A stretch of DNA of 64,000 nt from IMG/VR virus record IMGVR_UViG_3300020020_000025, one strand, 5' to 3'. Every line of letters begins with the position of its first letter. The first letter of the stretch is position 1. The stretch comes from a virus. The position numbers and the translations under genes are program-made. Positions 2,954 through 52,168 of the stretch are shown piece by piece. The notes under the pieces are model-generated. The model made no database searches and was not told the DNA's origin. It worked only from the letters and a program-made list of their open reading frames with translations.

Positions 2954-3882
2954 TGGGTAGCAGCACTAATGTACCCCAGCCCTCAGCGGCTGAGCAGGAG
3001 CTGCAGAAGGCTCAAGCCGATCTGCTAGGAATGCAGAAGAAGATCGTTGAGCAGCAGCAGGCCCAAAATAAGATCCTGCTGCCCTTCCTTGCTGAGCAGG
3101 AGGGCTTCGATGTTGAGCTGGATGATGCAGGCAACATCAAGAGTATCAAGCGGAAGTTTGATCCTGATGAGGCCAAACGAAAGGAGTTGGAGAGTGGTTT
3201 TCTTGATCGGTCGCTCAAGGCTCTTAAGGGCGAACTCCCTGTTGATCCGGCCCTCGAGAGAAGCCTGGGGTCGAGCGAAGAAGCCTTACGGGAAAAACTA
3301 CAAGCCCAGTTTGGGGCAGGATATGAAACCTCCTCGCCAGCTATCGAAACACTCCAGCAGTTCCGCGAGAGCAGCGAAATTCTCCGCGAGGGAGCTAGGA
3401 CGGGACAGTTAACCCTATCGGAGCAGTTGGGCCTAACCAGGGAACAGCAGCGGCAATTCACACAGGGGGCACAGGCTGATGCCCTCCGAAATACTGCGAT
3501 AGGCGATCCCATGAGCTTTGCGGGGGCCTTTGGCCAGGTTGCAAGGGGATATGGGCAGGCTCAAGTTCCCTATATGCAGAACCGTCAGCTGCAGGCTCAA
3601 ATCAAGGGAGCTAACTCAGATCGCTTATATAAGCTATTAGGAGCTGGTATCAGTACTGCTGGTCAGATTGGATCAGCAGCTATCATGTTCTCTGACCCTG
3701 AACTGAAGGATGATATGATCCCAGTAGGCCTAACAAGGCAGGGATTTACGATCTATGAATATACTCTCAAGACCTCAGGTGAGCGAATGCTTGGAGTGCT
3801 GTCAACTGAGGTTGAACCCATGTTGCCTGAAGCGGTCTTACGCAGAGGCGATTGGGATGTCGTAGATTATGGAGCGCTCTAA
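2950..3882 (+). CDS. Pilot/DNA-ejection protein with C-terminal peptidase S74-type autocleaving chaperone domain
   Basis: Q/A-rich helical body; C-terminal FSDPELK...IYEY...GVLSTEV...PEAV...VDY. Confidence 0.65.
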   Translation: MMGSSTNVPQPSAAEQELQKAQADLLGMQKKIVEQQQAQNKILLPFLAEQEGFDVELDDAGNIKSIKRKFDPDEAKRKELESGFLDRSLKALKGELPVDPALERSLGSSEEALREKLQAQFGAGYETSSPAIETLQQFRESSEILREGARTGQLTLSEQLGLTREQQRQFTQGAQADALRNTAIGDPMSFAGAFGQVARGYGQAQVPYMQNRQLQAQIKGANSDRLYKLLGAGISTAGQIGSAAIMFSDPELKDDMIPVGLTRQGFTIYEYTLKTSGERMLGVLSTEVEPMLPEAVLRRGDWDVVDYGAL

Positions 3883-5774
3883 TGGGTGGATATCTCCCAG
3901 AGCCCGATGAATGGATGCAGCCTCAGCGCGAGCCTGAGGCCATACTACCGCAGCCACAGCAGCCTATCTCCAGGCAGCAGCAGGTAGCGGCAGCTTATCA
4001 ACAGAGCCAACAGGAAATTCAGCAAGCTCAAAGTGTCGCTGCTACGCGTGAAGAGGACCTAAACGTAGCACAGTACATGACCAAGATGCTTGATCCTACG
4101 GTGCCTAAGGCGGCTCGTCAATTTCTGTTCCGTGAGTTGTCCACGAGGATGGGCGTCGATCCTAAGGGTGAGACCTCACAGAACTTTGGCAAGATGCTTC
4201 TAGGCCTCGAGCCTGAGGCCCTTGAACGGTTGAATAGGGGCTATGCCGACAGGATTAAGAATGCCACTCCGGGCCAGATTAAGCAGATGACCCAGGCCGT
4301 CCTTCAAGGCGATGTATCGGGCATCGAGTTGATGAAGATGGCTAATGTACGAGTTGCCCAAGCTGGAGGTGGTGGTACTCCAGGTGTAATCCCGGCACAA
4401 CCGACGGCTCCTATCTCAGGCCCCCCTGGCGCACTTCCTCCCGCGCCAGGGACTACCCCTCCTGCGGCTGACCCTGCGGCGGCTGCAGGAGGGCCTCCCT
4501 CACCGTCAACGCGGCGGTATAAGGGCCAAGGTGAGACTATTCCGTTTCATCAACCTGTTGAGCCAGGCTTAGTTCGAGCCCTTGGTTATCAATTCGGCGA
4601 CCCTGTAAGGGTAAGTGATCTAGCGAAAGAGGGTATTACTGTTCCTCAAACACCCAAGGAACAGAACGATCTAATGAAGGCTATGGATGCCAATGCGTCA
4701 GCCACAGTCACAGTAGTAAAAGATGCAACTAGGTTACATCAGTTATTTAAGGGAAAGCCTGAAGTTCTTGGTCTTGTTGGAGCAACTGCAAGGACTGTGG
4801 ATCAAGCCATTGATCAAATGAAGGGTGTAATCCGCTCGGCAGGGGGTGATACATCCACCTTTGATCAGAATGATAAGGGATTTAGAGCCCTGATTGCACG
4901 TTCGGCTCAACGTGTATCAGATGTATACAAGAGTTCTGGAATTGAGCAGACTGCTGTTGACAGCGCAAGGCTGCAGGGAGCTGTTCTAGATATGGCCTAT
5001 TCAATGGCCAATGCTAAGGGAATCCCAGATAACCGCCTGACTAATAGAATGATCGCTCAGGAACTCAATACACTGGGGCAATCCCAATCGGTTGCTCAAT
5101 TTGAGGCAACTCTCAAGGAGGCGGTTGGCAGAGCACTTAGCAAATCTAGCAACGAAATAGCTGCTAGGGTTGGACGGCCTATGGACCCTAATCTAGGATT
5201 TGTCAATACACAAGACCTCGTCTTTATGGGCCAGAGTGATATTGCTTCCCCTGAACTGAAGAAGACTATCTTAGAAGAATCTAAGCGGCGTCTGTCGGGA
5301 GCTGCTGGTAAACCTATCAAGCGAGCAGAGCCCACTGTAGAAAGTGAGCAGCTATATACATCAGAGGAGGAGCGCCGGGAATCAGAGCGCAAGAAATCTG
5401 AGGAAAAGCGCCAACAAGAGGAACACGTATTAAAGAAGCGCCGGGATGTAAGAGCTGAAGAAGAGGGCGAGCGAGCTGAGGCTCGTATGGCCCGTACTGA
5501 GTTCGAGCAGAATCGCCGCTTCAACCTCGCCGAGAAGCGTGAGAGGCGCATGGAGGAACAGCACCGGCGCGACAAGATAGGAGCAGCCTTCAAGGAACTA
5601 GGTAAGATGATCGGAGAGGCTGGATCATCTGGTCGATCGATTGGAGCTGGAATTGGAGCTGGTGGAGGTGGAGGCGATCAGGATGCTGGAGCATTTAGGA
5701 TGACCCCAGCTCCTCGTAGGGCGCCGCCTAAACCAGTGGACGCCGAGCGGTATCAACGAAAGCCAGGTAAGTAG
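3882..5774 (+). CDS. Internal virion/ejection protein
   Basis: Likely start ATG 3882 (TAATG overlap); Q/A/P-rich, C-terminal coiled coil; in ejection cluster. Confidence 0.6.
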   Translation: MGGYLPEPDEWMQPQREPEAILPQPQQPISRQQQVAAAYQQSQQEIQQAQSVAATREEDLNVAQYMTKMLDPTVPKAARQFLFRELSTRMGVDPKGETSQNFGKMLLGLEPEALERLNRGYADRIKNATPGQIKQMTQAVLQGDVSGIELMKMANVRVAQAGGGGTPGVIPAQPTAPISGPPGALPPAPGTTPPAADPAAAAGGPPSPSTRRYKGQGETIPFHQPVEPGLVRALGYQFGDPVRVSDLAKEGITVPQTPKEQNDLMKAMDANASATVTVVKDATRLHQLFKGKPEVLGLVGATARTVDQAIDQMKGVIRSAGGDTSTFDQNDKGFRALIARSAQRVSDVYKSSGIEQTAVDSARLQGAVLDMAYSMANAKGIPDNRLTNRMIAQELNTLGQSQSVAQFEATLKEAVGRALSKSSNEIAARVGRPMDPNLGFVNTQDLVFMGQSDIASPELKKTILEESKRRLSGAAGKPIKRAEPTVESEQLYTSEEERRESERKKSEEKRQQEEHVLKKRRDVRAEEEGERAEARMARTEFEQNRRFNLAEKRERRMEEQHRRDKIGAAFKELGKMIGEAGSSGRSIGAGIGAGGGGGDQDAGAFRMTPAPRRAPPKPVDAERYQRKPGK

Positions 5775-8323
5775 TGGCAGATGATTTTGCCCTTGACGAT
5801 ATTGAGCCTCCAGGTACCACTGCGGAGGATGAGCTTAATCGCGTCCGCGAAGAAGCTATTCGCTTGGCAGCCAAAGCCGCTCAAGAATTAGCAGATGATC
5901 CTTCAGGTCCTCGCAGAAAACAGGCTGAGATCAGACCAACTCCTGAGAAGCGGGCAATTGTAGCTCCTTGGGGCATTCCTAAGGGCTCAACAGAACTCGA
6001 GCCGATGGTCCCTGAGATACTGCATGATCCATGGAACTTGTTCAATGAGATGGTTGATCTATTCTCGAAGGGTCATCGCGCTAGCGATCGGGAAGTTGTC
6101 GAGCGTTCGACCAAGCTGGCCGCCAATCTAGTTGGTGGTGGCATGGTCATGGAGACTGCTCAGCAGGCAGCAAAGAAAGGAGTTGTAAAGGCTGTTCAGG
6201 AAGTTGGTCACGGAGATATAAAATCTGCTTACAACCCTTATGACTTATCAAACTGGCCTGAAAGCAGTATTCATACACTAGATCATGGTTTCCTTAAAGA
6301 GATATCTGACATGGGTATGGCAATCAAGCATAATGAGGACCAAACTTGGACCGTAATTGGAAAGGGAGCTAAGACTGGCAATCCTCAAAAGGCTGAAAAG
6401 CTAGATTTTGACAATGAAGATGATTTGCTAGAACATCTAATTAAACTAAGGGAGGAGAAGGGCCAGGAGATGAAATCCTGGCACAAGGTACATAGCGAGC
6501 CCTATTTGCCTCCTAGCGAAGCTGTGAAGAAGGTAATGGACTCAGAATATGGCATTGGCATGTATGGACATGGTAAGGAGTGGCATGTCTGGGGTTGGGA
6601 ACCTCAGCCCAACGAGAAATACGCTAAATACATAGCTAAAGAATTTACTAATAAAGATGAGGCTACCAAGTTCTATGAGGAGATAAAGAAGAGTACTGAG
6701 CTAGCCAATGCTGAGAAAAAATTCTCCCACGAAGCCAAGAGAGAGGTCGAGACCTTTGGCAAGATGCTTAAGACTGAAAAGAAAATCTTAGAGGATGATA
6801 AATTTGGTCAATTAGCTTCAATTGGAATAGATAAAGAAACTTATGACGGTGTAAAGGCACTTGGCCTTGATATAGCCGTTTATGAGAATGGCGAATTTAG
6901 CTTGGTTGGAAAAGGAGCGATAGATGGATCATCTGCTTGGCAGTCGATGGTATTTGATGATACTGCCAAGCTTATAGATCATCTGACCAATGTTCAGCAC
7001 CTCAAAGATGGTCTTATAACTCAAGAAGAGCTTGTGAATAAGACTACAGGCGCTTCAGGAGGTCCCAGCCCTAAGGCCGTCTTTGGTTCTGGAGAGTTTG
7101 GTAAAAATGTCTATGGTAAATCTGCAGACGCTCCAGCTAGCAGCTACCAGCCAAAAGCCCTCTGGAAGGATGATAGCGCTGTTGAAGTTTATGGAACTAT
7201 GGAAGAAGCCATAGCTGCAGCTGGAAAGGGAGGTAAAGCTGATCCGCTAGCCCAGGGAGGTTATGCTGCTTACCAAGCGGATTATAAGGGATATGTCACA
7301 AAGGGCCAAGGTCCTGCCCCTGTAGCTCCAGTCGAGAAAAAGAAGATTTGGACCTATACTGAGATGGACGATAGATGGCCCTCCCTGGATAAGGTAATGC
7401 ACGTTACAGTTGATACAGGGAAGAAAAATCCTCATAGTATGACTCTTAAGGAACTACTTACCAAGATGGGTAAGCAGGGAGAGGAGATTGCTGACGTTAT
7501 AGACATGGCAGTCGGTGCTGGTATATCCAAGATCGAGGTGGGCGACATAAAGATGAATATAAATTTCTTTGAAAGCCACGATAAGCCGCTCCCTCCAGGG
7601 ATCTCATATCCTGGCTATATTAAGTCGGAGAAATTGCCAAGTGAAACGCAGATGCGTCTTTGGCCAAATGCCAAGGATATAGATACATTAGGAAATACGG
7701 ACAAGCATCCTGAAGGAGGACTCCTCGCTTATCATGGAACCAAAGTCGATAAGATATTCGAGAAAGGACAATTCGATCTAGCGCATTCTAATGATATAGG
7801 TCATCACTTTGGAACAAAGGAACAAGCAGGATCAATAATTGTAGGCGACAATCTTTGGAGTGACTCACTACCAAGAAGGATCATTCCTGTTCACATAGCT
7901 GTGAAGAATCCTCTTACATTACCAGATATGGGTGGTTGGCGGCCCTGGGATTTCCCTAGAGAACTTGCTGAAGTATTACCAGGCTATACCGAGAAAATGG
8001 AAAATAATCTATCTGCTAGATTAAATAAGGTCTCAGAGGTCTCAGAGGGAGATATAGGACGAAAGCAGTTTGATATCATTCGAGCGGAGATAGAGAAATT
8101 CGGCTATGACTCTATTCGCTATCTCAACTCAGTAGAGGGAGAGGGATGGTCCTACATCGTATGGCAGAAAAATAGAGTTCGGTCGGCTTCTAATCCTGAG
8201 CATATACTGTATGTCAGGACAGGACCAGGCGTACCGAACAGATATCAAGAGGAAGACGAGGATGGGCGGAATACCAATAGACGAGACCCTGATCTCTCAG
8301 CCGCAGCCCCAAGAAGTCCTTGA
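5774..8323 (+). CDS. Multidomain (polyvalent-type) virion protein with C-terminal ADP-ribosyltransferase-like domain
   Basis: YHGT...GHHFGTKEQA...PVHIAVKNP...GYDSIRYLNSVEG...SYIV; internal repeats; stop-start coupled within the ejection cluster. Confidence 0.6.
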   Translation: MADDFALDDIEPPGTTAEDELNRVREEAIRLAAKAAQELADDPSGPRRKQAEIRPTPEKRAIVAPWGIPKGSTELEPMVPEILHDPWNLFNEMVDLFSKGHRASDREVVERSTKLAANLVGGGMVMETAQQAAKKGVVKAVQEVGHGDIKSAYNPYDLSNWPESSIHTLDHGFLKEISDMGMAIKHNEDQTWTVIGKGAKTGNPQKAEKLDFDNEDDLLEHLIKLREEKGQEMKSWHKVHSEPYLPPSEAVKKVMDSEYGIGMYGHGKEWHVWGWEPQPNEKYAKYIAKEFTNKDEATKFYEEIKKSTELANAEKKFSHEAKREVETFGKMLKTEKKILEDDKFGQLASIGIDKETYDGVKALGLDIAVYENGEFSLVGKGAIDGSSAWQSMVFDDTAKLIDHLTNVQHLKDGLITQEELVNKTTGASGGPSPKAVFGSGEFGKNVYGKSADAPASSYQPKALWKDDSAVEVYGTMEEAIAAAGKGGKADPLAQGGYAAYQADYKGYVTKGQGPAPVAPVEKKKIWTYTEMDDRWPSLDKVMHVTVDTGKKNPHSMTLKELLTKMGKQGEEIADVIDMAVGAGISKIEVGDIKMNINFFESHDKPLPPGISYPGYIKSEKLPSETQMRLWPNAKDIDTLGNTDKHPEGGLLAYHGTKVDKIFEKGQFDLAHSNDIGHHFGTKEQAGSIIVGDNLWSDSLPRRIIPVHIAVKNPLTLPDMGGWRPWDFPRELAEVLPGYTEKMENNLSARLNKVSEVSEGDIGRKQFDIIRAEIEKFGYDSIRYLNSVEGEGWSYIVWQKNRVRSASNPEHILYVRTGPGVPNRYQEEDEDGRNTNRRDPDLSAAAPRSP

Positions 8324-10409
8324 AGGCGGTCTTGAGGAGAGTCAACATACCCTGACGGACGAGGAACGTCGCTCTCTTGAAGCCCTCGTTAAGCAGTTAG
8401 AGACTGATCCTAGCGTGGCAGGTTCTGTTCCCGGAGCCCCTGGCCCAAGTGCAGGACAGGTACCTCTCCAGGCCGGCCGCGAGATGCAACCAGCTACTTC
8501 CTCTGAGCCGCTTGATCCCCTAGGTATTCGAGGGGCAGCTGGCAACATGCCAGTTGAGAACATGAGCCCTGGCCGTGCTGCGCTGGCGCGCGCAGTGCAA
8601 GGATGGGGAGAGAGTGGCTCCGCCACCATTGGAGCGGCTCAGCAAGTAGGCAAGGAGTTCGTAGAGGATTTCCCCAAGACCTGGCAAGAGTTTGTCGAGA
8701 AGACACAGAAACCTGAGAACGTCCGTGCAATCCTCAAAGGCAGCATGGGAGCTGCCGGAGGAATGACTATGACCAGCCTAGGTCCTGGCGGCATCATGCT
8801 AGGAACCTATGCAGGGGCCACAGTCGGAGGATATCTAGCCAACGCTTACGAGGACATCATAGGTCATACACGGACTACAGGCGGAGATGCTAACACTGTC
8901 CAACGCCTTATCCAACCTACACTCGATGCCCAGTGGGATGCTGCTGTATCAGGATCAGTGTCGGCCCTACCCTACGCTACACCCGTTATGAAGGGATGGC
9001 TAGCTAGGATGCTCAGTCTGCCTCCCAACTCTCGGCAATTGGTCGAAGAGGCATCATCTCTAGGAGTAAATATTGGCGTAGCTAATGTCGCTAATGGAGG
9101 CGTTGGCAAGGGTGCAGTCAATGTCTTCGGCAGGATGCCCCTAATCGGTACATCAGCCCGCAAGGCCTCTGAGCGCCAGGGTAAGGCTATTGTTGAGGCC
9201 TACAATGATATGTTTGGCCAGCTCTCGAACCCAAACGCTACTACTGAGGTTGCAGAAACAGCCCTACTAGCTGCCAGGAATCGATTTGGTGAGTGGTCTA
9301 CTAAGGCCATGGGACGCTATAATCACGCCTTAAAAGTTGGGGAAGAGCAAGGAGCAGTGCTCTCGACGGACAAGGTGTTGAAGGCCACTGGTCAGGCGCT
9401 GCATGAGATGAGCACCAAGACTGGAAAGCTGTTAGGCGTTCCTCCTGCAGATATGAAAGTGTTTCTAAATGGAGTTGTTAAGAACCTAGATGACAAGATG
9501 TCCACCATGGACGCTAATAATATATTGATAGATTTGGAACGCCTTATGAGAAAGGCCGACAAATCGCACGGTGTTCATTATAGCAAGCTGGAGCAAGTTC
9601 AGAAGGCCCTTGAAGAAACTCTCAAGGGCTCGGACAATGTAGCAGCCAAGTTGCTAGTGAAAGCCCGATCAAACTTCCAGGAAGGCATTAAAGAGTTTGA
9701 GACTAGTATCTTCAAGAAGATGGTTGGGCAGGTTGATCGGAATATCTACGCCATCGGCAAGATCAAAAGCGGAACTATAACTGCCGATGATCTAATGGAA
9801 ACTGCTGCAAAAACCCACTCCGCTAGCGCTGTCAGGGAGTTACGGAATGCAGCAGGGGACGACGTCGTTAGAAACGTCGCCAGGGCCCGCTTGGATGATG
9901 CCTGGGTCAAAGCTACGGGGATTGAGCCAGGCACTCTTTTTGTTGGCCAGAAACTGTCCTTTGATGCCAAGCGCTTCACCGAAGCTCTAGGCCTCAACAA
10001 TCCTAATTCTCAGAAATACTTCACTATGAAGGAGATGCTTCGGGGCAGTGGTGTTGATATTGGAGATATTGAAAAGCTGGCGCGAGTAGGACAGGCCGTG
10101 ACTGCCGCGCCTATAGCCGACGCTTCGACATTCATGGCCCGCGCTGCCGTGCTGCGGGGGGCAGGCGGCGTTGCGGAGGCTGTACGAGGGGCGTTAACAA
10201 TGGGAGCAGGTGGTAGGACTGCCCAGAACATTGGCATGGTGCCCGCTATTGCAGGCCTCGTGATGATGCGCTGGGGCATCGGTGCCATGATGAAGCCCGG
10301 TCTCGTCAAGTTGGCGACCACGGCTATGGATGAGGCTATAGAACCAGCTGCCAGGGCAGCCGCACTAACGCAGATGACACTCCTACATCCTAGCCTATTC
10401 AACGAGTAA
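8262..10409 (+). CDS. Large internal virion/ejection protein
   Basis: A/G-rich helical protein; GAGG RBS before ATG 8262 (track start 8211 also possible). Confidence 0.6.
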   Translation: MGGIPIDETLISQPQPQEVLEGGLEESQHTLTDEERRSLEALVKQLETDPSVAGSVPGAPGPSAGQVPLQAGREMQPATSSEPLDPLGIRGAAGNMPVENMSPGRAALARAVQGWGESGSATIGAAQQVGKEFVEDFPKTWQEFVEKTQKPENVRAILKGSMGAAGGMTMTSLGPGGIMLGTYAGATVGGYLANAYEDIIGHTRTTGGDANTVQRLIQPTLDAQWDAAVSGSVSALPYATPVMKGWLARMLSLPPNSRQLVEEASSLGVNIGVANVANGGVGKGAVNVFGRMPLIGTSARKASERQGKAIVEAYNDMFGQLSNPNATTEVAETALLAARNRFGEWSTKAMGRYNHALKVGEEQGAVLSTDKVLKATGQALHEMSTKTGKLLGVPPADMKVFLNGVVKNLDDKMSTMDANNILIDLERLMRKADKSHGVHYSKLEQVQKALEETLKGSDNVAAKLLVKARSNFQEGIKEFETSIFKKMVGQVDRNIYAIGKIKSGTITADDLMETAAKTHSASAVRELRNAAGDDVVRNVARARLDDAWVKATGIEPGTLFVGQKLSFDAKRFTEALGLNNPNSQKYFTMKEMLRGSGVDIGDIEKLARVGQAVTAAPIADASTFMARAAVLRGAGGVAEAVRGALTMGAGGRTAQNIGMVPAIAGLVMMRWGIGAMMKPGLVKLATTAMDEAIEPAARAAALTQMTLLHPSLFNE

Positions 10410-10413
10410 TCCA

Positions 10414-11607
10414 ATGGTAATGCGTCGAGTTCAAGCTGGCACTATTCAACAGCGCAAACGAGAGGCGCTGCAGGAGTTCTATAAAAAGCAGGCCGATGAT
10501 ATAGAGGCATATAAGAAAAGTAGGGATTCCAGCACTCAGGCCGAGATATACAGGGAGCACGGTGATCCTGATTTCCGAGTTGGTAAGTGGAGCCAGCCGC
10601 GTCTAAAAGATGTGCTGCCCCAGCGGGAAGAAAAGGAAAACGTAGACAGGTATCCTCGATATGAAGGAGGTGTCCAAGGTATATCTTCCCGCTCCGATGA
10701 TCTTCCTGACTTTAAGGGACCTCGTCCCGAGGGTTACTGGGGCAAAGATAAGTCATGGAGCCAACTAAGCGATCACCAGAAGGCCGCTGCAATGGCCTTG
10801 CTGGAGGCCGGTCTTGACAAGAATGGGAGACCCGATATCGTAGCTGCCAAGAACGCCCTGGGCGCTATGATTAACCGTGCAGACAAAGAGGGCCAGGAGC
10901 TAGGACGCCATGTCAGCGGTAAGATATATCAGCCTACTATTGAGCCTGATCAGTATGCCCGGTTGCAGCATCTTACAAGACTGCCCGCCTTTCGAGACCT
11001 CACCGACATCGCGGAGCAGCGTGCGACCGGCCAAGTAGAGGACTGGGTAGGCGGGGCTACCCATTTTCTAGCTCATCCAAAGGAGATGCTTGCCCTTGAG
11101 GCCAAGGATCCAGCGAAGTATAAGAACTGGGGGCCTCGAGGCAAGAACTGGACGGGCTATGATGAGGCTACAGGGAGATACAAGAATGAGGTCCTGTCGG
11201 ACAGCAGCCACGTCTTCCTGGCTCCTGAGGGTAAGCATAGTGCTTTTGCTGGGCAGCCTTCTGCTTTTGACTATGGTACAACCGCCGAGCTATCCCAGCC
11301 AGATCGCCTCCAGGTTCCATTTCCTGAAGAGCAGCCCTCACCTGCTCCTGCGCCTCAAGTTCCCGAGCTGCCCAAGCTGTCCGAGTTTCTGGCTCAACAA
11401 CAGAGACAAATGCCCCAAGCCCAGCCCAACGATCTGATGGACATTCAATCTAAACCTATCAGTCTGCCAGGGCTTGGAGATGAGCTTCCTGGTCAGGATG
11501 ATAGAGCGTTTGCCATTCTGCCTTCTCAGCAGCGTCGGAGGCCAGGCGGGGGCGCTCCGACGCTACCAGTGCCGCGTAGACCTCCGGGATTTCTTCCGGA
11601 GTTTTAA
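10414..11607 (+). CDS. Virion-associated cell-wall hydrolase (SleB/Hydrolase_2-like)
   Basis: ALLEAG...ALGAMINR...YQP...DWVGGATHF...HVF motif order; last gene of late operon. Confidence 0.55.
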   Translation: MVMRRVQAGTIQQRKREALQEFYKKQADDIEAYKKSRDSSTQAEIYREHGDPDFRVGKWSQPRLKDVLPQREEKENVDRYPRYEGGVQGISSRSDDLPDFKGPRPEGYWGKDKSWSQLSDHQKAAAMALLEAGLDKNGRPDIVAAKNALGAMINRADKEGQELGRHVSGKIYQPTIEPDQYARLQHLTRLPAFRDLTDIAEQRATGQVEDWVGGATHFLAHPKEMLALEAKDPAKYKNWGPRGKNWTGYDEATGRYKNEVLSDSSHVFLAPEGKHSAFAGQPSAFDYGTTAELSQPDRLQVPFPEEQPSPAPAPQVPELPKLSEFLAQQQRQMPQAQPNDLMDIQSKPISLPGLGDELPGQDDRAFAILPSQQRRRPGGGAPTLPVPRRPPGFLPEF

Positions 11608-12427
11608 CGGAGTGCATGTCACCCCATGAGATGCCAACCTTGATATCCACGTTTAGGCGAAAGGTATGTCCACCGTAGTTAAGTTCGGGCCTCATATATT
11701 CTACCATTTGGTGGCAGAAGTGAGTGAGGTCCCCCCAATTGTCAGTGGGATAGAGGGCCATAAGCGAGTCATGGACTTGCGCCCCAAGGTTCATTCGCTG
11801 GAAGGGCTCGGAGGTGTCCTCAAAAGCGGCACACATGGCCTCCAGAACTATGTCCACCACGGTAGATTGCGGTACGAAGGAGTAGGCCTTGTCGAACAAG
11901 TCCGAGCCCCATTCCCCAAGGAGTCTAACCTTGCGGCCGAAGCAGTTGGTAAGCGTGCGGTCGTTTTCCTTCATCGTTTGTCGAGTGGCTTCCCACCACT
12001 TTGGGATGCCAGGATAGGCAACTTCAGTGTAAGCCGCTACAATAGGGGCCGCCTCACTCTCCATGATTTCCCACTCAAGAGCAGCTCGCCTATATTTCAT
12101 GCCATAGTTGAGCCCGTGGTTAGACTTCTTGCCCGACTGACGAATGGACATCGATCGAGGAAGGAAGATTGCATCTTTCTCATGCAATTCAATCAGCTCG
12201 GGCAACTTTTCCCTTCGCAGTTGAGCGATCAGGCCGGGGTCGGTGGCGTTTCCGAGTAGCTTGTGATCGGCTATTACTAGAGGCTCGGGAACGTCTGTGA
12301 TGAGGGCCCCCGTCACTATGTGCGGACTCTTCCCGCTTTCCACCACTTCTATCATGTTCGGGTCGTTCGCTAGATAAGCTACCACTACCCACTCTGCCCC
12401 GGCCAGATCGAACTCTACCAGTATCAT
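11459..12427 (-). CDS. polA: DNA polymerase family A, C-terminal catalytic half (motifs A, B, C)
   Basis: Motif A EFDLAGAEW at the N-terminus; motif B KKSNHGLNYG; motif C QVHDSL; AAGGGG RBS. Confidence 0.9.
   Translation of the reverse strand: MILVEFDLAGAEWVVVAYLANDPNMIEVVESGKSPHIVTGALITDVPEPLVIADHKLLGNATDPGLIAQLRREKLPELIELHEKDAIFLPRSMSIRQSGKKSNHGLNYGMKYRRAALEWEIMESEAAPIVAAYTEVAYPGIPKWWEATRQTMKENDRTLTNCFGRKVRLLGEWGSDLFDKAYSFVPQSTVVDIVLEAMCAAFEDTSEPFQRMNLGAQVHDSLMALYPTDNWGDLTHFCHQMVEYMRPELNYGGHTFRLNVDIKVGISWGDMHSVKTPEEIPEVYAALVASERPRLASDAAEKAEWQTLYHPDQEAHLQALAD
11582..11605 (+). terminator. Intrinsic terminator at end of late operon
   Basis: CTCCGGGA-TTTC-TTCCGGAG then TTTT, overlapping the last codons of 10414-11607. 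Confidence 0.6.
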
Positions 12428-12686
12428 TACAGCCCCTTAGTCTATTGGCCACCAGTTTGGCATATCCCGCTATATCATCCCAGTTGTCAACGTGATCCTG
12501 ACTGCCCGTGGTGATGCGAGATATCTTACTAGCTACCTGGTCCAGGCCCTCCTTCATGTCCTCCGACAGACAATGATATCCGGGAGTACTCCGAATGAGG
12601 AACTTGAGGCCCTGAGCTACAGTGGCATTATCGATAAAGGGGCCGTAGACTTGGCCCCTTTGCTCCAGCAGCTTATCGGTTTCCAT
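12189..12686 (-). CDS. DUF6378-like phage protein with out-of-frame tail overlapping the Pol C-half
   Basis: EQRGQVYG...KISRI...HVDNWDDIAGYA; conserved part ends near 12430. Confidence 0.6.
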   Translation of the reverse strand: METDKLLEQRGQVYGPFIDNATVAQGLKFLIRSTPGYHCLSEDMKEGLDQVASKISRITTGSQDHVDNWDDIAGYAKLVANRLRGCNDTGRVRSGRGRVGSGSLSSERPEHDRSGGKREESAHSDGGPHHRRSRASSNSRSQATRKRHRPRPDRSTAKGKVARAD

Positions 12687-13587
12687 TGGCGTTCTCCACG
12701 TCCAACAGCATTTTTTCTACTGTCTCAGCGTCGAAGGTTCCCGAGGGCTCACCGATGGCTACCCGTTGATAAATCTCAAGAGCTACCAAAGTCTTAGGTC
12801 CAAGGTGACCGTCAACTACCAGGCCAGGCCGATGTCCCAGTAGATTAAGAGTAGCCTGGCCCCAGCGAACCCACTCGTAAGTCCCTGGCTTGACTGCTCC
12901 AATTAGCCCACCTACCCACTGATCTGCCAGTTCCTCATAGGTGCCTCTAAAGGAGTTGACATCGAGATTACTGTCATCCACTCCCTTAATTTTTGGGGCA
13001 TCAGGTCCATGCTGGCCATCAGTGAACTGCCACAGCCAGTAACTGTCCCAGCTAGCCTGAGTATGAGGCTGAGGTCCGTACTGAGCGTGCCACAATCTGC
13101 ATGTGCCAAGATACTGGTCAACTTGGTTGCCCAACTGATCCTTGATAAGATGGCCCGAGTATAGCACGGGCAGCCTACCAGTTTTGGCCTCGAGCAGCTT
13201 AATGAATTGGATAGCATCAGCTGCACTGCATCGCTCGTCCTCATGATCGAGAGCCAGCAATGTACCAGGCTCAGGATCAGCATGTCTCAGGAAATGCTCG
13301 ACTTGGGCCGTAATATCCCCTGGCCTGAAGAAATGATAGGCGCCCCACAACAGGCCTACACTCTTTGCTAGGCTTCGGCGGGATGCATACGTAGGATCGA
13401 CGTAGCTAGAACCTTCAGTGGCCTTGTGGATAATGCCTCTAATACCGCTATAATATATGTCCTGAAAGGACGTTACTGTATTATGGTGGCTCAGATCGAG
13501 CACCATCGGGTTAAGCTTCTCGCCCTTAGGCTGAGCAGGTTCTTTGGTCTTAGATTTGGTCGTGGGCATGTCTACTTTTCCTCTCAT
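12673..13587 (-). CDS. Endolysin: GH25 muramidase plus C-terminal peptidoglycan-binding domain
   Basis: VLDLSHHN, HKATEG, GAYHFF, LDHE (DxE), WQFTD; C-terminal VDGHLGPKT PG-binding motif. Confidence 0.88.
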   Translation of the reverse strand: MRGKVDMPTTKSKTKEPAQPKGEKLNPMVLDLSHHNTVTSFQDIYYSGIRGIIHKATEGSSYVDPTYASRRSLAKSVGLLWGAYHFFRPGDITAQVEHFLRHADPEPGTLLALDHEDERCSAADAIQFIKLLEAKTGRLPVLYSGHLIKDQLGNQVDQYLGTCRLWHAQYGPQPHTQASWDSYWLWQFTDGQHGPDAPKIKGVDDSNLDVNSFRGTYEELADQWVGGLIGAVKPGTYEWVRWGQATLNLLGHRPGLVVDGHLGPKTLVALEIYQRVAIGEPSGTFDAETVEKMLLDVENANGNR

Positions 13588-13717
13588 CCCGTAGATAAGT
13601 CATCAGTTTCCGTCTCTGTCTGTACGTCTTCTCGTAGTTCTTCTCCTGGTTCTTGTACTTTGGCCTCCTTAACTTCGCCAGTAGGCGATCTCGCTCCGTT
13701 CGTATGCGCTTGGGCAT
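13550..13717 (-). CDS. Possible 55-aa basic protein overlapping the acidic tail of the Pol N-half
   Basis: AGAAGGA RBS then ATG CCC AAG; K/R-rich. Confidence 0.35.
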   Translation of the reverse strand: MPKRIRTERDRLLAKLRRPKYKNQEKNYEKTYRQRRKLMTYLRDERKSRHAHDQI

Positions 13718-15362
13718 CTTTCCTTCTCGCCACAATAAAGCCTTTGAACTGAGGATGAAGGTTCTGCAGGTTCATTCCCTTATTGAAGATCGTCTGTGAC
13801 GATGACAGTCGTCCTGTCCATGTTCCTCGAGGATTCCAGCTACATCGAAGCATCATGTCGGGATCAAGCTCGACCTCGAGATATGTCCCTTTGAGCTTTC
13901 GGAGAGATCGAACTTCCTGTGTTAGCTTGGCCTCCTTGGCCCCAGGCCCGCCCTTGCGGACGATCCGAGACATGGCTTTGTCATCAGTGGTGATACCGCC
14001 TCTTGCCTTAGTGTAGGCCTTAAGGCCCAGTGTCTCATAGAAGTACTTGGCGCACTGGGCAGGCGACGAGACGTTGAAATCCCATTCAGCGGCTTCCCGG
14101 AGTTCAGCCTCCTTAGCAGCCAATTCCTGTTCGATTTGGGCCTTCGTAGCCCCGAGGCCTTCCAGATCCACTTCTAGACCACGAGCCGACATATACGTAA
14201 GCGGGCCGGCCAATCTGACGGTTCTGTTGTAAGTGGGCCAATAGCCTCCAGCTGTCATTTCCTCCGATAATACGTCCCACGCTTCTAGCGCTACACATGC
14301 GTCTCGGCCACAGTATCGCTGAAACTGCTCCCACTCGATGTTGGGGTTCTTCCATATCTTGCCATCATCCTTCCAGTAAGGCTCCCGTGTATGCACGCTC
14401 GCGATAAAGTCCAGACCTTTCCTAAAATCAGGATACAGGACGTGCTGGGCAATCATAGGATCGCCAAGTTTGCCCTTCGTGTGGATATGATTCTTGTTAA
14501 ACAGGTATGGTGCATCAAAGCCCACCAGGTTCTGGTTGATCTTCTCGATCTCAGGATCACTCATCAAGGCCGCATAGTTCTGCCATACCCTAATCTCATC
14601 ATCTTCTTCCCAATAGGGCACCGTGCCTGGCCACTGCATATCCCCCACGAGGGGAACAGTCATGGCCTCTTCTTTGTCGCACGAGAGACTAAAGCAGCTA
14701 ATCTGCTCATTAACGACTTCAAGATCAGTCGCTACGCGACCGACCTCTCGGCACTTATGGATATACTGGTAGAAATCGTAGTATGTTGGCCTGACATGCA
14801 GAGTCCGCTTTGGCAACAGCAGTTCGGGACTATCCAGTTCGCCCTGGATCTTCTTCATGTCCCCTATTATCATGTAGCGCCACAAATAGACGCCGTGGAT
14901 TGTTGCTGCTGGATGGATAGTCGGAATGTACTTTTTCTTGACTCGATCGCTCCATAAGGGGCTGCCTCGCCACTTCATGATGGGCTTCTTGTGATCGTCC
15001 ATCAGCAGTTCCATAGCCTGAGTCCCCATGCTCAAGATGGCATTGCACTTCGAGGCCATGATCCGACGTAATGTAGGAACAGCGGCATCCAGGCCATATG
15101 CAGTAAAACCCTTGCTCACTGTCCATACCTGTTCTCCGTCCATAGAGAAATTTCCGGCCTTGTCCTTATCTATGGGCTTAGGCCAGATGTTGAGAATATA
15201 GCAATTGCGCCGTATAAGGCCAGCAGCGTGGAGACAGTCCATAAAAACGTCCCCACTAGGACCAACCAGCGGCCTACCAAGCCGCATCTCGACTCTTGCG
15301 GGAGCCTCCGCCAGGACCAAAAGGGGCGCATTGGGATCGCCTTCTTCAGAAGGAGTTGCCAT
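13584..15362 (-). CDS. polA: DNA polymerase family A, N-terminal half: UDG family 4-like domain, 3'-5' exonuclease, thumb and TGRLSS motif
   Basis: AEAP...GRPLVGPSG...HPAA; ExoI TDLEV, ExoII NLVGFD, ExoIII YCGRDA; TGRLSSS...NLQNL...FIVA. Confidence 0.9.
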   Translation of the reverse strand: MATPSEEGDPNAPLLVLAEAPARVEMRLGRPLVGPSGDVFMDCLHAAGLIRRNCYILNIWPKPIDKDKAGNFSMDGEQVWTVSKGFTAYGLDAAVPTLRRIMASKCNAILSMGTQAMELLMDDHKKPIMKWRGSPLWSDRVKKKYIPTIHPAATIHGVYLWRYMIIGDMKKIQGELDSPELLLPKRTLHVRPTYYDFYQYIHKCREVGRVATDLEVVNEQISCFSLSCDKEEAMTVPLVGDMQWPGTVPYWEEDDEIRVWQNYAALMSDPEIEKINQNLVGFDAPYLFNKNHIHTKGKLGDPMIAQHVLYPDFRKGLDFIASVHTREPYWKDDGKIWKNPNIEWEQFQRYCGRDACVALEAWDVLSEEMTAGGYWPTYNRTVRLAGPLTYMSARGLEVDLEGLGATKAQIEQELAAKEAELREAAEWDFNVSSPAQCAKYFYETLGLKAYTKARGGITTDDKAMSRIVRKGGPGAKEAKLTQEVRSLRKLKGTYLEVELDPDMMLRCSWNPRGTWTGRLSSSQTIFNKGMNLQNLHPQFKGFIVARRKDAQAHTNGARSPTGEVKEAKVQEPGEELREDVQTETETDDLSTG

Positions 15363-16079: not shown

Positions 16080-16342
16080 TACTCTGCGGTCCTTAAGGTG
16101 TGCGACATAGCGCCCATCTTGCATCGGGTGCAGAAGCGCTCGCCGCCGTTCTCTATCTCCCGCCAGCCCTCCCAATTGTGTTCGCAGGGACCCTCTGGAC
16201 AGGCGCAGTAACAGGCATTCCAATCGAAGTTGTGATGGAGAACGCCCTTGATGTTCATTTTCTTGGCAACCTCTTCCAGTTCTTCACGAACCTTGATGTT
16301 GCGTTCCTTGCGAAGGGCTTCAAAGTCAGGTTTTCCGGCCAT
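16079..16342 (-). CDS. Small Cys-rich (Zn-binding) protein
   Basis: CYCAC..GPCEH and CTRC; AAGGAG RBS. Confidence 0.65.
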   Translation of the reverse strand: MAGKPDFEALRKERNIKVREELEEVAKKMNIKGVLHHNFDWNACYCACPEGPCEHNWEGWREIENGGERFCTRCKMGAMSHTLRTAE

Positions 16343-17627
16343 ACTCTTTCTCCTTGTCTTCCGTTATGCGCTTGAGGAAACTCTCCTTATGATCGTCCGA
16401 GAGGTCCCAGCCTATACCTGTGTGTTGGAGGCGATAGGCTGCCCGCAATGTCACCCCTGAGCCCAAGAAGGGGATTAGGATATGACTGCCGGGATCGAGG
16501 CACAGATTGAGTATCTCCTCCATAAGGACCAAGGGCTTCTCAGTGGGATGATCCTTCTTGGCCAGTGCTGGATAGTTGAAGACGTTGCCTCGTCCCTGTC
16601 GAGGTAGTTTGGGCTGGCCCTTGCGGGCCAAGAAGAATGGTTCATAAGCTGAGCCCAAGGTCGTCTCAGGAGCCGCTGTCTGACCTCCCATTTCGCCCTT
16701 GACCCAGACAGCCGGTATATCAGGCACGCCGAAGCCTACGTCACGCAAGGTTGTAAGAACCATGTGGTGCCAAGACATGCCGTACCAGAACACCGCAAAG
16801 GCGTTAGGTCGAAGACGATCGTAGACAAGAGTGCATAACTGCCTAAAAGCGACTGGGAAACCCTTGTTATCCCACTCGAAATACTGGTCCATTGGACTTC
16901 CATCGGTGTTCCTCGATTTGCGCTTATCTAGATCAACGCCATAAGGAGGATCAACCTCAGCGAAGTGAAAGAGATCACCTTTCATCTGGGTCATCTCTTG
17001 CATGGCATCACCTATTAGATAATGATCGCTGGCATAGTCGACAGCCCGCTTGATATGGTCAGGCACTAGATCTCGTGCCCGCTTTAGAGCAACCTTTTCC
17101 TCCAGCTTCTTTACGTCCTTCCATGCAGCATCTTCCGTTTCCATTTCCTCAAGGGCAAGTTCAGGAGCCTCCTCCATTGTCTTAGCAATTTCAAGGGCCC
17201 TATGAGTATTGCTCTTATCTCTCCCTACAAGAAGAGCATGTTTCTCCTTTGTCCATCCCTTGGGATTGGTCGTAGGTTCCCATTCCCCATATTGAGCTAT
17301 CTTCAGGTTCCATATCTTCAATTCTAGTTTAGCTCTTTCGTGCCATTCAAGATCTTTCCGAGCTACATTTTCAATCAACTCAATTTCAAGGCTATTCGCT
17401 TCGCCATTTATTGGACGTACTATAGCCTTAATAGTGTCTAGCCCAAGCAGTCGATGAGCGAGATACCGACGTTCACCGGCCACCAACTTAAGATCAGTAT
17501 CTAGCGTAATAGGTTGAATAAGGCCATGCTGCTTGATGGCTATTGCTAGACCTTCGATATCTCCCTTATCCTCGCGTGCTCGGTCTTTGACCTTTATTTG
17601 GTCAAGCCTGATCTCCTGTACCTGCAT
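16326..17627 (-). CDS. ParB-N domain / DNA methyltransferase (N6-A or N4-C, beta class) fusion
   Basis: GLIQPI...LVAGERR, ENVARKDL; DPPY motif IV; HPTEKP; PFLGSG motif I. Confidence 0.85.
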   Translation of the reverse strand: MQVQEIRLDQIKVKDRAREDKGDIEGLAIAIKQHGLIQPITLDTDLKLVAGERRYLAHRLLGLDTIKAIVRPINGEANSLEIELIENVARKDLEWHERAKLELKIWNLKIAQYGEWEPTTNPKGWTKEKHALLVGRDKSNTHRALEIAKTMEEAPELALEEMETEDAAWKDVKKLEEKVALKRARDLVPDHIKRAVDYASDHYLIGDAMQEMTQMKGDLFHFAEVDPPYGVDLDKRKSRNTDGSPMDQYFEWDNKGFPVAFRQLCTLVYDRLRPNAFAVFWYGMSWHHMVLTTLRDVGFGVPDIPAVWVKGEMGGQTAAPETTLGSAYEPFFLARKGQPKLPRQGRGNVFNYPALAKKDHPTEKPLVLMEEILNLCLDPGSHILIPFLGSGVTLRAAYRLQHTGIGWDLSDDHKESFLKRITEDKEKEYGRKT

Positions 17628-46502: not shown

Positions 46503-47963
46503 GTGGCTATAATCATTCCGCATACTACTAGAGCTGCAGGAACTGTGCTGACAGCATCGATCTACAATGCTGACCATGTTAATCATGTTACTAATGCCAA
46601 CAGTCTTAATACGGCTAAGCTAGAATCTCCCATTGGAACGTCGCAGATCAGCGATGATAGTATTACAAACTCCAAGCTGGCCAATATGGTGGCTCAGGCC
46701 ATCAAGATGCGGAACAACGCCGCTGCTGGCGATCCGCAAGATCAGATACATAGCGATGTCACCACTGCAACTCCAGTATCAGGTGATCTTGCTCTCGGTT
46801 GGACTGCAGCGGGTCTGTTAAGGAAGTTCGATGTCGTTAACTTTGGCGGCGCAACCGTCCCTCGCCGAGTTATCATTGGTGCTGATACTGTAGGTATTGG
46901 CGATAAGGGAGGTATCATTGAGATAACCAGTGGAGGTCCCTTTACACTGGCCTTCACTGCTGCAGCTACGCTGGCCAATAACTTCACTGTGATGCTCCTT
47001 AATTCGAGTGACACTGATATTACACTTGATCCCAATGGAGCCGAGCTGATAGACGGCTTGACGAGTTGGGTGCTATATCCAGGAGGAGCCGTCTTTGTAC
47101 ATGGCAACGGCACAGCCTTTGAGAGTCTAATGCTCAACGGCATGAGGAAGCAGTTTGATGCCAGTGGTACTTGGACGAAGCCCGGAGTTGGGAAGTACAT
47201 TATTGTGGAGTGCTGGGGCGGAGGAGGATCGGGCGCCCGTGCTCAGAATGGTGAAGGAGGAGGTGGAGGAGGCGGAGGTGCCTATAACCGCCGGTGGCTT
47301 CCGTTCTCAGCCTTAGGGGCTACCGAGACTGTGACTGTCGGGACGGGAGGAGCCTCTCGGACAGTTGACAATACGGATGGAGCGCCTGGCGGCAATACAA
47401 CCTTCGGAGCCCATATAACTGGATTTGAAGGAGGTGGGGGTGGAGATCAGGCAGGTGGAAATGGAGGAGGCGGAGGTGGAGGGGGAGTAAGCGGAGCAGG
47501 AGCCACGGCTACAACTGATGTTGGAGCTAATGGAGGGTTTCCTAGGTATTGGGTGCCCGTTGCTGCTACTAATAGATTTGGAACAGGGGGAACAGCAGAC
47601 GCTCCTGGAGAGGACAACCCTACAGGAGGTGGTGGAGGCGGTGGAGGCGAAACTGCTGTACAAGCTAGAAAAGGAGGAGATGCCTTCTGGGGAGGAGGTG
47701 GCGGGGGAGGCGCAGCGGGATCTGTAGCTACTCAAGGAACTGGAGGTTTATCAGTATATGGAGGAGCTGGTGGAGGCGGTGGAGCAGCGACTACTGCAGC
47801 AGCTGCTGGGGGCACCTCACAGTTCGGTGGCAATGGTGGGGCAGGGGCCACGGGAGGCGCAAACGGCGTGGCTGGATCGGCTCCTGGTGGCGGCGGGGGC
47901 GGGTCTGAGAACTCCAATTCCGGCGCTGGAGGGGCAGGTCGGTGCATAGTTTACATGTGGTAG
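46503..47963 (+). CDS. Repeat copy: glycine-rich tail fibre
   Basis: Identical to 109-1569. Confidence 0.75.
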   Translation: MAIIIPHTTRAAGTVLTASIYNADHVNHVTNANSLNTAKLESPIGTSQISDDSITNSKLANMVAQAIKMRNNAAAGDPQDQIHSDVTTATPVSGDLALGWTAAGLLRKFDVVNFGGATVPRRVIIGADTVGIGDKGGIIEITSGGPFTLAFTAAATLANNFTVMLLNSSDTDITLDPNGAELIDGLTSWVLYPGGAVFVHGNGTAFESLMLNGMRKQFDASGTWTKPGVGKYIIVECWGGGGSGARAQNGEGGGGGGGGAYNRRWLPFSALGATETVTVGTGGASRTVDNTDGAPGGNTTFGAHITGFEGGGGGDQAGGNGGGGGGGGVSGAGATATTDVGANGGFPRYWVPVAATNRFGTGGTADAPGEDNPTGGGGGGGGETAVQARKGGDAFWGGGGGGGAAGSVATQGTGGLSVYGGAGGGGGAATTAAAAGGTSQFGGNGGAGATGGANGVAGSAPGGGGGGSENSNSGAGGAGRCIVYMW

Positions 47964-50276: not shown

Positions 50277-52168
50277 TGGGTGGATATCTCCCAGAGCCCG
50301 ATGAATGGATGCAGCCTCAGCGCGAGCCTGAGGCCATACTACCGCAGCCACAGCAGCCTATCTCCAGGCAGCAGCAGGTAGCGGCAGCTTATCAACAGAG
50401 CCAACAGGAAATTCAGCAAGCTCAAAGTGTCGCTGCTACGCGTGAAGAGGACCTAAACGTAGCACAGTACATGACCAAGATGCTTGATCCTACGGTGCCT
50501 AAGGCGGCTCGTCAATTTCTGTTCCGTGAGTTGTCCACGAGGATGGGCGTCGATCCTAAGGGTGAGACCTCACAGAACTTTGGCAAGATGCTTCTAGGCC
50601 TCGAGCCTGAGGCCCTTGAACGGTTGAATAGGGGCTATGCCGACAGGATTAAGAATGCCACTCCGGGCCAGATTAAGCAGATGACCCAGGCCGTCCTTCA
50701 AGGCGATGTATCGGGCATCGAGTTGATGAAGATGGCTAATGTACGAGTTGCCCAAGCTGGAGGTGGTGGTACTCCAGGTGTAATCCCGGCACAACCGACG
50801 GCTCCTATCTCAGGCCCCCCTGGCGCACTTCCTCCCGCGCCAGGGACTACCCCTCCTGCGGCTGACCCTGCGGCGGCTGCAGGAGGGCCTCCCTCACCGT
50901 CAACGCGGCGGTATAAGGGCCAAGGTGAGACTATTCCGTTTCATCAACCTGTTGAGCCAGGCTTAGTTCGAGCCCTTGGTTATCAATTCGGCGACCCTGT
51001 AAGGGTAAGTGATCTAGCGAAAGAGGGTATTACTGTTCCTCAAACACCCAAGGAACAGAACGATCTAATGAAGGCTATGGATGCCAATGCGTCAGCCACA
51101 GTCACAGTAGTAAAAGATGCAACTAGGTTACATCAGTTATTTAAGGGAAAGCCTGAAGTTCTTGGTCTTGTTGGAGCAACTGCAAGGACTGTGGATCAAG
51201 CCATTGATCAAATGAAGGGTGTAATCCGCTCGGCAGGGGGTGATACATCCACCTTTGATCAGAATGATAAGGGATTTAGAGCCCTGATTGCACGTTCGGC
51301 TCAACGTGTATCAGATGTATACAAGAGTTCTGGAATTGAGCAGACTGCTGTTGACAGCGCAAGGCTGCAGGGAGCTGTTCTAGATATGGCCTATTCAATG
51401 GCCAATGCTAAGGGAATCCCAGATAACCGCCTGACTAATAGAATGATCGCTCAGGAACTCAATACACTGGGGCAATCCCAATCGGTTGCTCAATTTGAGG
51501 CAACTCTCAAGGAGGCGGTTGGCAGAGCACTTAGCAAATCTAGCAACGAAATAGCTGCTAGGGTTGGACGGCCTATGGACCCTAATCTAGGATTTGTCAA
51601 TACACAAGACCTCGTCTTTATGGGCCAGAGTGATATTGCTTCCCCTGAACTGAAGAAGACTATCTTAGAAGAATCTAAGCGGCGTCTGTCGGGAGCTGCT
51701 GGTAAACCTATCAAGCGAGCAGAGCCCACTGTAGAAAGTGAGCAGCTATATACATCAGAGGAGGAGCGCCGGGAATCAGAGCGCAAGAAATCTGAGGAAA
51801 AGCGCCAACAAGAGGAACACGTATTAAAGAAGCGCCGGGATGTAAGAGCTGAAGAAGAGGGCGAGCGAGCTGAGGCTCGTATGGCCCGTACTGAGTTCGA
51901 GCAGAATCGCCGCTTCAACCTCGCCGAGAAGCGTGAGAGGCGCATGGAGGAACAGCACCGGCGCGACAAGATAGGAGCAGCCTTCAAGGAACTAGGTAAG
52001 ATGATCGGAGAGGCTGGATCATCTGGTCGATCGATTGGAGCTGGAATTGGAGCTGGTGGAGGTGGAGGCGATCAGGATGCTGGAGCATTTAGGATGACCC
52101 CAGCTCCTCGTAGGGCGCCGCCTAAACCAGTGGACGCCGAGCGGTATCAACGAAAGCCAGGTAAGTAG
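50276..52168 (+). CDS. Repeat copy: ejection protein
   Basis: Identical to 3882-5774. Confidence 0.6.
   Translation: MGGYLPEPDEWMQPQREPEAILPQPQQPISRQQQVAAAYQQSQQEIQQAQSVAATREEDLNVAQYMTKMLDPTVPKAARQFLFRELSTRMGVDPKGETSQNFGKMLLGLEPEALERLNRGYADRIKNATPGQIKQMTQAVLQGDVSGIELMKMANVRVAQAGGGGTPGVIPAQPTAPISGPPGALPPAPGTTPPAADPAAAAGGPPSPSTRRYKGQGETIPFHQPVEPGLVRALGYQFGDPVRVSDLAKEGITVPQTPKEQNDLMKAMDANASATVTVVKDATRLHQLFKGKPEVLGLVGATARTVDQAIDQMKGVIRSAGGDTSTFDQNDKGFRALIARSAQRVSDVYKSSGIEQTAVDSARLQGAVLDMAYSMANAKGIPDNRLTNRMIAQELNTLGQSQSVAQFEATLKEAVGRALSKSSNEIAARVGRPMDPNLGFVNTQDLVFMGQSDIASPELKKTILEESKRRLSGAAGKPIKRAEPTVESEQLYTSEEERRESERKKSEEKRQQEEHVLKKRRDVRAEEEGERAEARMARTEFEQNRRFNLAEKRERRMEEQHRRDKIGAAFKELGKMIGEAGSSGRSIGAGIGAGGGGGDQDAGAFRMTPAPRRAPPKPVDAERYQRKPGK

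Follow-up and report, generated by a model that had tools for sequence, protein, structure and literature searches.

The stretch of viral DNA analysed here, IMG/VR record IMGVR_UViG_3300020020_000025, is 64,000 nucleotides long (the window) and comes from an uncultured ~46-kb short-tailed phage that is podovirus-like. One of its late genes encodes an 849-residue protein, and the C-terminal part of this protein is very probably a divergent member of the ART-PolyVal family of ADP-ribosyltransferases (ARTs), an assignment that we regard as sound on sequence profiles and a predicted structure. As a whole, the protein is best explained as an ART-PolyVal enzyme that is packaged in the virion, ejected into the host and there ADP-ribosylates a host macromolecule. 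We place the probability of this reading at about 0.5. Proteins of this kind have already been defined computationally. Virion-packaged, injected ARTs of the ART-PolyVal family were predicted in 2017 (Iyer et al., 2017; PMC5512222) and were surveyed again in 2022 (PMC9503650), so the idea itself is a published one.

ART-PolyVal, the ART of polyvalent proteins from phages and conjugative elements, is matched by the protein itself, at a score under the curated cut-off, and by many of its relatives. The Pfam profile ART-PolyVal (PF18760) matches the C-terminal 250 residues of the protein at residues 651-807 (E = 6.1e-5, 24.2 bits). A second run gave E = 3.6e-5 and 25 bits, and across the runs profile positions 8-135 of 140 are covered. 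The whole 849-residue protein has no Pfam match at E ≤ 0.01 and no PHROG match. Precomputed PF18760 annotations are present on four of the six closest homologs, and 30 of 49 sampled relative domains match PF18760 individually (best E = 1.7e-22). Among 1.84 billion representatives, 3,681 proteins matched a profile of the domain at E ≤ 1e-3, 62 of them at E ≤ 1e-30. Many of these proteins are 2,000-7,000 residues long and contain up to 10 copies of the domain, which is the signature of polyvalent proteins. The prototype of the family is the virion RNA polymerase (vRNAP) of Roseovarius Plymouth podovirus 1 (RPP1; CBX87992.1) (PMC5512222), and alignment to it by hhalign gave E = 3.4e-6 over the N-terminal half. 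Sequence searches of the PDB with the domain and with a 49-sequence profile returned noise only.

The predicted structure agrees with this assignment. A first AlphaFold model built from 7 sequences was mediocre (predicted local distance difference test score, pLDDT, 68.6) and was replaced by a model built from 49 sequences, which has a pLDDT of 87.8, a predicted template modelling (TM) score of 0.83 and seven strands. A three-helix insert separates strands 4 and 5. It coincides with gap-rich alignment columns and is variable in the family, and by analogy with AcrIF11, in which a variable helical insert lies between the halves of the sheet (bioRxiv 10.1101/2024.08.26.609590), it may be a candidate target-recognition part. 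Foldseek against the PDB placed chain B of the cyanophage A4 pre-ejectosome first (E = 8e-4, probability 1.0), followed by AcrIF11 (E = 9e-3) and by diphtheria toxin and tankyrases (E = 0.04-0.2). An exhaustive structure comparison against 48,161 PDB chains (VIA) gave a similar picture. All its rows at Z ≥ 5 belong to the ART superfamily, the A4 ejection chain aside, and the same is true to about rank 27. The best score is that of the A4 chain (Z = 6.7). It is followed by homologs of diphtheria toxin (6.0-6.5, with 131-146 residues aligned), tankyrases (5.7-5.9), PARP1/2 (5.5-5.6), AcrIF11 (5.5), ParT (5.4) and MbcT (5.4), and lower scores were found for NatT (4.6), RES toxins (4.4), a Tpt1-type entry (3.4) and R-S-E toxins (2.5-3.1). 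Among viral models, BFVD holds 58 matches at E ≤ 1e-3, many of them named ART-PolyVal. The top ESM Atlas cluster is ART-PolyVal (TM 0.65/0.70, root-mean-square deviation 2.9 Å, 156 residues), while other Atlas neighbours carry a fusion to head-packaged MuF domains and RES appears at TM 0.43. The initial annotation had likened the domain by eye to an ART fold of the kind seen in phage polyvalent proteins. The model and its neighbours, which include diphtheria toxin and the tankyrases/PARPs, bear out the predicted fold, and the Pfam match, the profiles of the relatives and the BFVD and Atlas clusters agree on the family.

The same annotation rested on a series of short motifs, and all of them are present, in order, at residues 653-796 of the translated product. 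YHGT (residues 653-656, nucleotides 7730-7741) is followed by GHHFGTKEQA (676-685), PVHIAVKNP (705-713), GYDSIRYLNSVEG (777-789; noted earlier as GYDSIRYLN.VEG) and SYIV (793-796), and the whole series lies within residues 650-806 (nucleotides 7721-8190). Every motif is kept in six of six metagenomic homologs, which are 34-48% identical over the domain. Residue counts were taken from 368 domain copies in 152 retrieved proteins, a set that includes both stand-alone proteins of 150-250 residues and tandem copies in giant polyvalent proteins. His654 and Asp779 are nearly invariant (Table 1). Position 678 is more varied, with His in 62% of copies, Tyr in 14%, Phe in 11% and Trp in 4%, and the neighbouring Phe679 is Phe in 82%. 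Asn785 is Asn in 83%, Glu788 is Glu in 75% and Asp in 8% (83% acidic), Ser793 is Ser in 73% and Ser804 is Ser in 88%. At position 792, where the window protein has Trp, 31% of copies have Asp and 21% have Trp. This is the only one of the positions counted here (654, 678, 679, 779, 785, 788, 792, 793 and 804) at which the window protein does not have the majority residue. A chance match of the motifs was considered and rejected, as conservation and fold both argue against it.

Table 1. Features of the ART-carrying gene and its neighbours (positions in the window).
Feature	Position	Strand	Description
ART-carrying protein gene (P0001)	5774..8323	+	849 residues; GTG start; N-terminus MADD..., as in homologs
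N-terminal conserved module	5774..6169	+	residues 1-132; ..VPEILH.PY..F.EM...G..PSD.EVV.R.T..A
Middle region with internal duplication	6302..7156	+	residues 177-279 versus 360-461; BLASTP E 4e-5
ART-PolyVal-type ART-fold domain	7649..8224	+	residues 626-817; predicted seven-strand core and helical insert
His654	7733..7735	+	codon CAT in YHGT, strand 1 (model 26-32); His in 311/314 copies, 99%
His678-Phe679	7805..7810	+	GHHFGT, strand 2; position of the ART-PolyVal 'Tyr'
Three-helix insert between strands 4 and 5	7943..8098	+	residues 724-775; model helices 100-110, 116-132, 137-151
Asp779	8108..8110	+	codon GAC in GYDS, start of fifth strand (model 156-160); Asp in 257/269 copies, 96%
Asn785...Glu788-Gly...Trp792-Ser793	8126..8152	+	loop and start of sixth strand
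Upstream 640-residue gene	3852..5774	+	no family; stop overlaps ART start
Downstream 715-residue gene, P22-gp16-like	8262..10409	+	start ATG inside GAGGATGG; 62-nt overlap with ART gene
Last late-operon gene, 397 residues	10414..11607	+	no Pfam/PHROG family; syntenic in relatives

ART-PolyVal, or 'N4-ART', was defined by a His in strand 1, a Tyr in strand 2 and an Asp in strand 5, and it was related to Tox-ART-HYD2 (Iyer et al., 2017; PMC5512222). By our own reading, the best candidate for the strand 5 Asp of that definition is Asp779 of the GYD motif. The RPP1 prototype has the series LYHGT / GLFFT / GYDG / GEIMVV (residues ~1020-1140), and its GLFFT, which hhalign pairs with GHHFGT of the window protein, has Phe and not Tyr in strand 2. 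Together with the mixed residues at position 678, this indicates that the strand 2 Tyr is not strict in ART-PolyVal. In the VIA ranges, His21 of diphtheria toxin and His1031 of tankyrase-2 fall on model residue 30. This residue is His654, which is the predicted His that binds nicotinamide adenine dinucleotide (NAD). The acidic positions were placed by anchoring the C-terminal ends of the VIA ranges (diphtheria toxin 9-164, TNKS2 1023-1152 and PARP1 810-1002, with the model range ending at 183), and when anchored in this way Asp115 of AcrIF11 would fall near Glu788. The predicted site consists of His654, His678/Phe679 and Asp779 together with the conserved Asn785, Glu788 and Ser793. In style it resembles most closely the 'H-H-D' site of AcrIF11, an active mono-ADP-ribosyltransferase of phages and plasmids that depends on Asp115 (PMC8120803). 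Asp779 and/or Glu788 are the candidate catalytic acids. We judge the odds that the domain is catalytically active to be even or slightly better.

The case for packaging comes from the gene context. The window wraps around a ~46.4-kb genome that is circular or circularly permuted. Its open reading frames (ORFs) return every 46,394 bp (the one at 109, for instance, reappears at 46503), and the wrap gives a second copy of the ART gene at 52168-54717. By PHROG assignment, the plus strand has the genes for terminase, portal, major capsid, tail and fibre, which run into the block that holds the ART gene, and the minus strand has the replication genes. The late operon ends in four large genes of 640, 849, 715 and 397 residues. 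None of the four has a Pfam or PHROG identity, and tblastn of two neighbours of the ART gene found no cultured-phage relatives. For the 640-residue protein the Atlas points faintly to the 'Inj_translocase' of the P22 gp20 type (0.89), to be taken as a lead only. The 715-residue protein resembles the Atlas clusters of PF26808 (P22 gp16) in features (0.96, with 183-185 of 256 in common) and in structure (TM 0.47/0.50 over 452 residues). The protein has no Pfam match, and hhalign of its family with P22 gp16 is not significant (E = 0.13). In one relative, a 1,309-residue protein (P0004), the ART and gp16-like proteins are fused in frame, and the window's 715-residue protein is 40% identical to residues 723-1277 of this protein over 564 residues. 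The order 635 residues / ART / 707 residues / 388 residues / convergent PolA is kept in relatives L005 and L006. A third relative, L004, has a gene for an SLT lytic transglycosylase (348 residues) directly after its ART gene, and no separate gp16-like gene was called between them. This SLT protein was considered as a homolog of the 397-residue protein of the window and rejected, as the two share no homology.

The initial annotation had described the ART gene as standing between ejection genes. The flanking genes lack any Pfam, PHROG or tblastn identity with ejection proteins, and that part of the description was drawn from position. It finds indirect backing in the P22-gp16-like features and structure of the downstream protein, in the P0004 fusion, in the gene order kept in relatives, in the SLT neighbour of L004 and in the best PDB fold match, which is a proven pre-ejectosome protein (A4 gp27). 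From this context it is likely that the ART protein is packaged and ejected with the DNA. The likeness to the P22 proteins gp7/gp20/gp16 lies in the gp16-like neighbour and in the run of large genes that ends the late operon; in P22 itself, genes 20 and 16 do not flank an ART gene.

Under the reading that we prefer, the ART protein would be made with the virion proteins, packed in the capsid core beside the P22-gp16-like ejection protein and expelled into the host together with the DNA. The domain would then rely on His654-Gly655 and the His678/Phe679 strand to bind NAD+. With Asp779 and/or Glu788 as the acid, it would move ADP-ribose to a host macromolecule, and the choice of this target may lie with the variable three-helix insert. 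By analogy with T4 Alt and AcrIF11, this target could be a component of host transcription, translation or defence.

Several points weigh against this enzymatic and injected role. The PF18760 score of 24-25 bits is below the 31.2-bit gathering cut-off, and the PDB matches are all middling (Z < 7, TM 0.3-0.4). In the site itself, the strand 2 Tyr is replaced by His678. Furthermore, Glu148 of diphtheria toxin, Glu1138 of tankyrase-2 and Glu988 of PARP1 would fall, by end-anchoring, on model residues 167-169, which are Gly791-Trp792-Ser793, and there is no acid among them. On both counts the H-Y-E-type site proposed in the initial annotation appears not to hold. The literature searched yielded no assay of any ART-PolyVal member. 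To call the neighbours ejection proteins depends on language-model features and a TM of ~0.5 without profile backing, and the P0004 fusion comes from a single 6-kb contig in which a single-base indel could have created it. Finally, blastn and tblastn found no cultured relative that could serve for virion proteomics.

Three other explanations were weighed. The domain may act on NAD+ without being a protein ART, either as a glycohydrolase or phosphorylase of the RES/MbcT kind or as a DarT/Tpt1-like modifier of nucleic acids, for example one that marks phage or host DNA or RNA at entry. The MbcT, NatT, RES and Tpt1-type entries among the fold neighbours listed above are consistent with such chemistry, the protein would lie against the packaged DNA, and the unusual H-H-D constellation with its Ser and Asn is compatible with it. 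We nevertheless consider this explanation unlikely, as the closest structural matches are protein-modifying ARTs (the diphtheria-toxin family, tankyrases and AcrIF11) and Iyer et al. group the family with the protein-modifying toxin ARTs (PMC5512222).

It is also unlikely that the module keeps the ART fold without catalysis and belongs to the framework of the capsid-internal pre-ejectosome, where it might pack against neighbours or DNA or bind a nucleotide and would not act on the host as an enzyme. The apparent lack of an acid at the canonical Glu position, the exchange of Tyr for His and the low Pfam score would all fit such a module. So would the best PDB match, A4 gp27, which is a structural, DNA-contacting component of the outer layer (PMC12002296). 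However, a scaffold would not be expected to keep His654, Asp779, Asn785, Glu788, Ser793 and Ser804 across 368 copies that include stand-alone and tandem forms, and AcrIF11, Arr and the H-Y-[ILT] PARPs lack the classical Glu and are nevertheless active (PMC8120803). A late effector or toxin that is not packaged and acts late in the infected cell or after release at lysis would suit the lack of direct evidence for virion association, the flanking genes without Pfam/PHROG identity and the occurrence of HYD2-type ARTs in polymorphic toxins (PMC9503650), but it is quite improbable given a gene that overlaps and is co-oriented with the structural operon, a position kept in relatives, the fusion to a gp16-like protein in P0004 and structural kin fused to head-packaged MuF.

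The preferred reading, an injected ART-PolyVal enzyme, can be set beside several known systems. The ART-PolyVal family shares with the window domain its fold and its motifs (YHGT; G-x-[HYF]-F-[GT]; GYD; [DW]-S-Y-I-V-[FW]), and its members likewise stand on large phage proteins, late or of the virion, that are predicted to be injected. In addition to the sub-cut-off score and the His in place of the described Tyr, the window domain differs in its ~50-residue helical insert, which is absent from the RPP1 copy. It also differs in its setting, as it stands on a mid-sized 849-residue protein in a P22-like ejection cassette, and neither on a giant protein with several enzymes nor on a vRNAP of the N4 type. 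AcrIF11 (PDB 6KYF) is alike in its diphtheria-toxin-like core, in a site of His, Phe/His and Asp, and in its helical insert. It has no detectable sequence similarity to the window domain, however, and is a protein of 137 residues that stands alone, is made early and is not part of the virion; its target, Asn250 of Cas8f, cannot be carried over to the window domain. Among solved structures, diphtheria toxin and PARP/tankyrase match the fold best (Z = 5.5-6.5, 111-146 residues aligned, 10-17% identity) and share the strand 1 His-Gly. They differ at strand 2, where the window domain has His/Phe, and at the Glu position, which is apparently Gly-Trp-Ser, and the window protein has no translocation or receptor domain. 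T4 Alt is made late and packed in the head, is injected and then acts on proteins of the host as infection begins, which is the mode of action proposed here (PMC5512222; PMC9503650). Alt is a myovirus protein of the R-S-E (Alt/VIP2) clade, whereas the window domain is of the His-type clade in a podovirus-like cassette. The R-S-E signature of Arg in strand 1, Ser-Thr-Ser in strand 2 and Glu-x-Glu is absent from the window domain, in which strand 1 has His654 and not Arg, and strand 2 reads HHFG and not Ser-Thr-Ser.

The A4 match concerns gp27 (PDB 9K3A chain B), which cryo-EM has proven to be a capsid-internal pre-ejectosome protein of the outer layer that contacts DNA (PMC12002296). VIA aligned 142 residues, ending at gp27 residue 1600. 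The protein has 1,717 residues and is encoded in Anabaena phage A-4L (L001:6117-11270, minus strand). By eye, its residues ~1414-1600 contain LYHGT (H1426), GSGTYFS (Y1448), a helical insert, GVDAL (D1580) and TTLVIN. This by-eye series would be an H-Y-D, ART-PolyVal-like one, and the A4 paper gives no ART annotation for it (PMC12002296). There is no significant sequence similarity between gp27 and the window domain: hhalign with the whole protein and with the sub-region gave a probability of 0.3-1.2%, Pfam gave no match, and local hidden Markov models (HMMs) gave E = 0.06-0.27.

An injected enzyme is at work before phage gene expression begins, and this makes such enzymes prime candidates for counter-defence and host takeover. 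To our knowledge, only T4 Alt has been well studied among them. A wider proposition is that ART-fold domains are a recurrent, unrecognized enzymatic cargo of podovirus pre-ejectosomes, as in the cassette of the window and in A4 gp27, and that the H-H-D subfamily acts as a mono-ADP-ribosyltransferase which, injected as the DNA enters, disables a defence or takeover target of the host. We regard this as doubtful. If true, it would mean that an AcrIF11-like enzyme is delivered as a protein and not expressed early. The present analysis adds to the published idea an H-H-D-like constellation with conserved Asn, Glu and Ser, a placement in a P22-gp16-linked cassette of a phage without cultured relatives, and an unannotated ART-like region in A4 gp27. 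ART-PolyVal is very large, with thousands of clusters, and the 849-residue protein is a compact case, with one enzyme in a simple ejection cassette and a clear set of residues that can be mutated (His654, His678, Asp779, Glu788 and Ser793). The link to A4 gp27 leads to a genetically tractable phage with a solved pre-ejectosome.

By sequence, the phage is without close cultured relatives. The ART gene matched no cultured phage by blastn, and tblastn of the ART domain matched only Tenacibaculum phage pT24 and virus Rctr197k. The portal has 31% identity over 21% to Alteromonas podophages. An identical ART protein is on record in six contigs, the longest of 46,535 bp. The (M)ADD start agrees with the MA-D start of homologs, and the opposite strand beneath the ART region (7721-8190) has no ORF of at least 60 residues.

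The gene had been described as stop-start coupled to its neighbours, which is true of one end. At the 5' end the upstream stop TAG (5772-5774) shares a base with the GTG start (5774-5776) in a TAGTG overlap. At the 3' end there is instead an overlap with the next gene of 62 nt (from ATG 8262) or 113 nt (from ATG 8211). In this overlap the next gene, in the +1 frame, has its ribosome-binding site and ATG (8262) in GAGGATGG, with which the conserved C-terminal EDGR of the ART protein coincides. A fusion of the ART frame to the gp16-like frame by +1 frameshifting at the stop CCT-TGA-A was set aside, as there is no recognizable slippery site. A single-base indel in the overlap (8211-8323) would interconvert the separate and fused states of the two genes.

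The rest of the 849-residue protein consists of an N-terminal module and a middle region, for neither of which was a known family found. The N-terminal module of ~130 residues is common to proteins of 600-1,300 residues with a C-terminal ART (local HMM: P0003-P0008, P0029, P0012, P0014, P0053 and P0056), and we suggest it as a candidate for virion incorporation. When the N-terminal 140 residues served as the query, the only match was the protein from which they came. The duplicated module of the middle region has the core ..GKGA..G....FD....L..HL...

Two further observations concern the minus strand genes of the window. The family A DNA polymerase is split into two genes of 322 and 592 residues (11459-15362), with a gene for a GH25-type endolysin (12673-13587) between them, and L004 and L006 have the same layout. 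A protein of 433 residues (16326-17627) combines a ParB-N domain with an N6/N4 DNA methyltransferase, and this fusion is kept in both L004 and L006.

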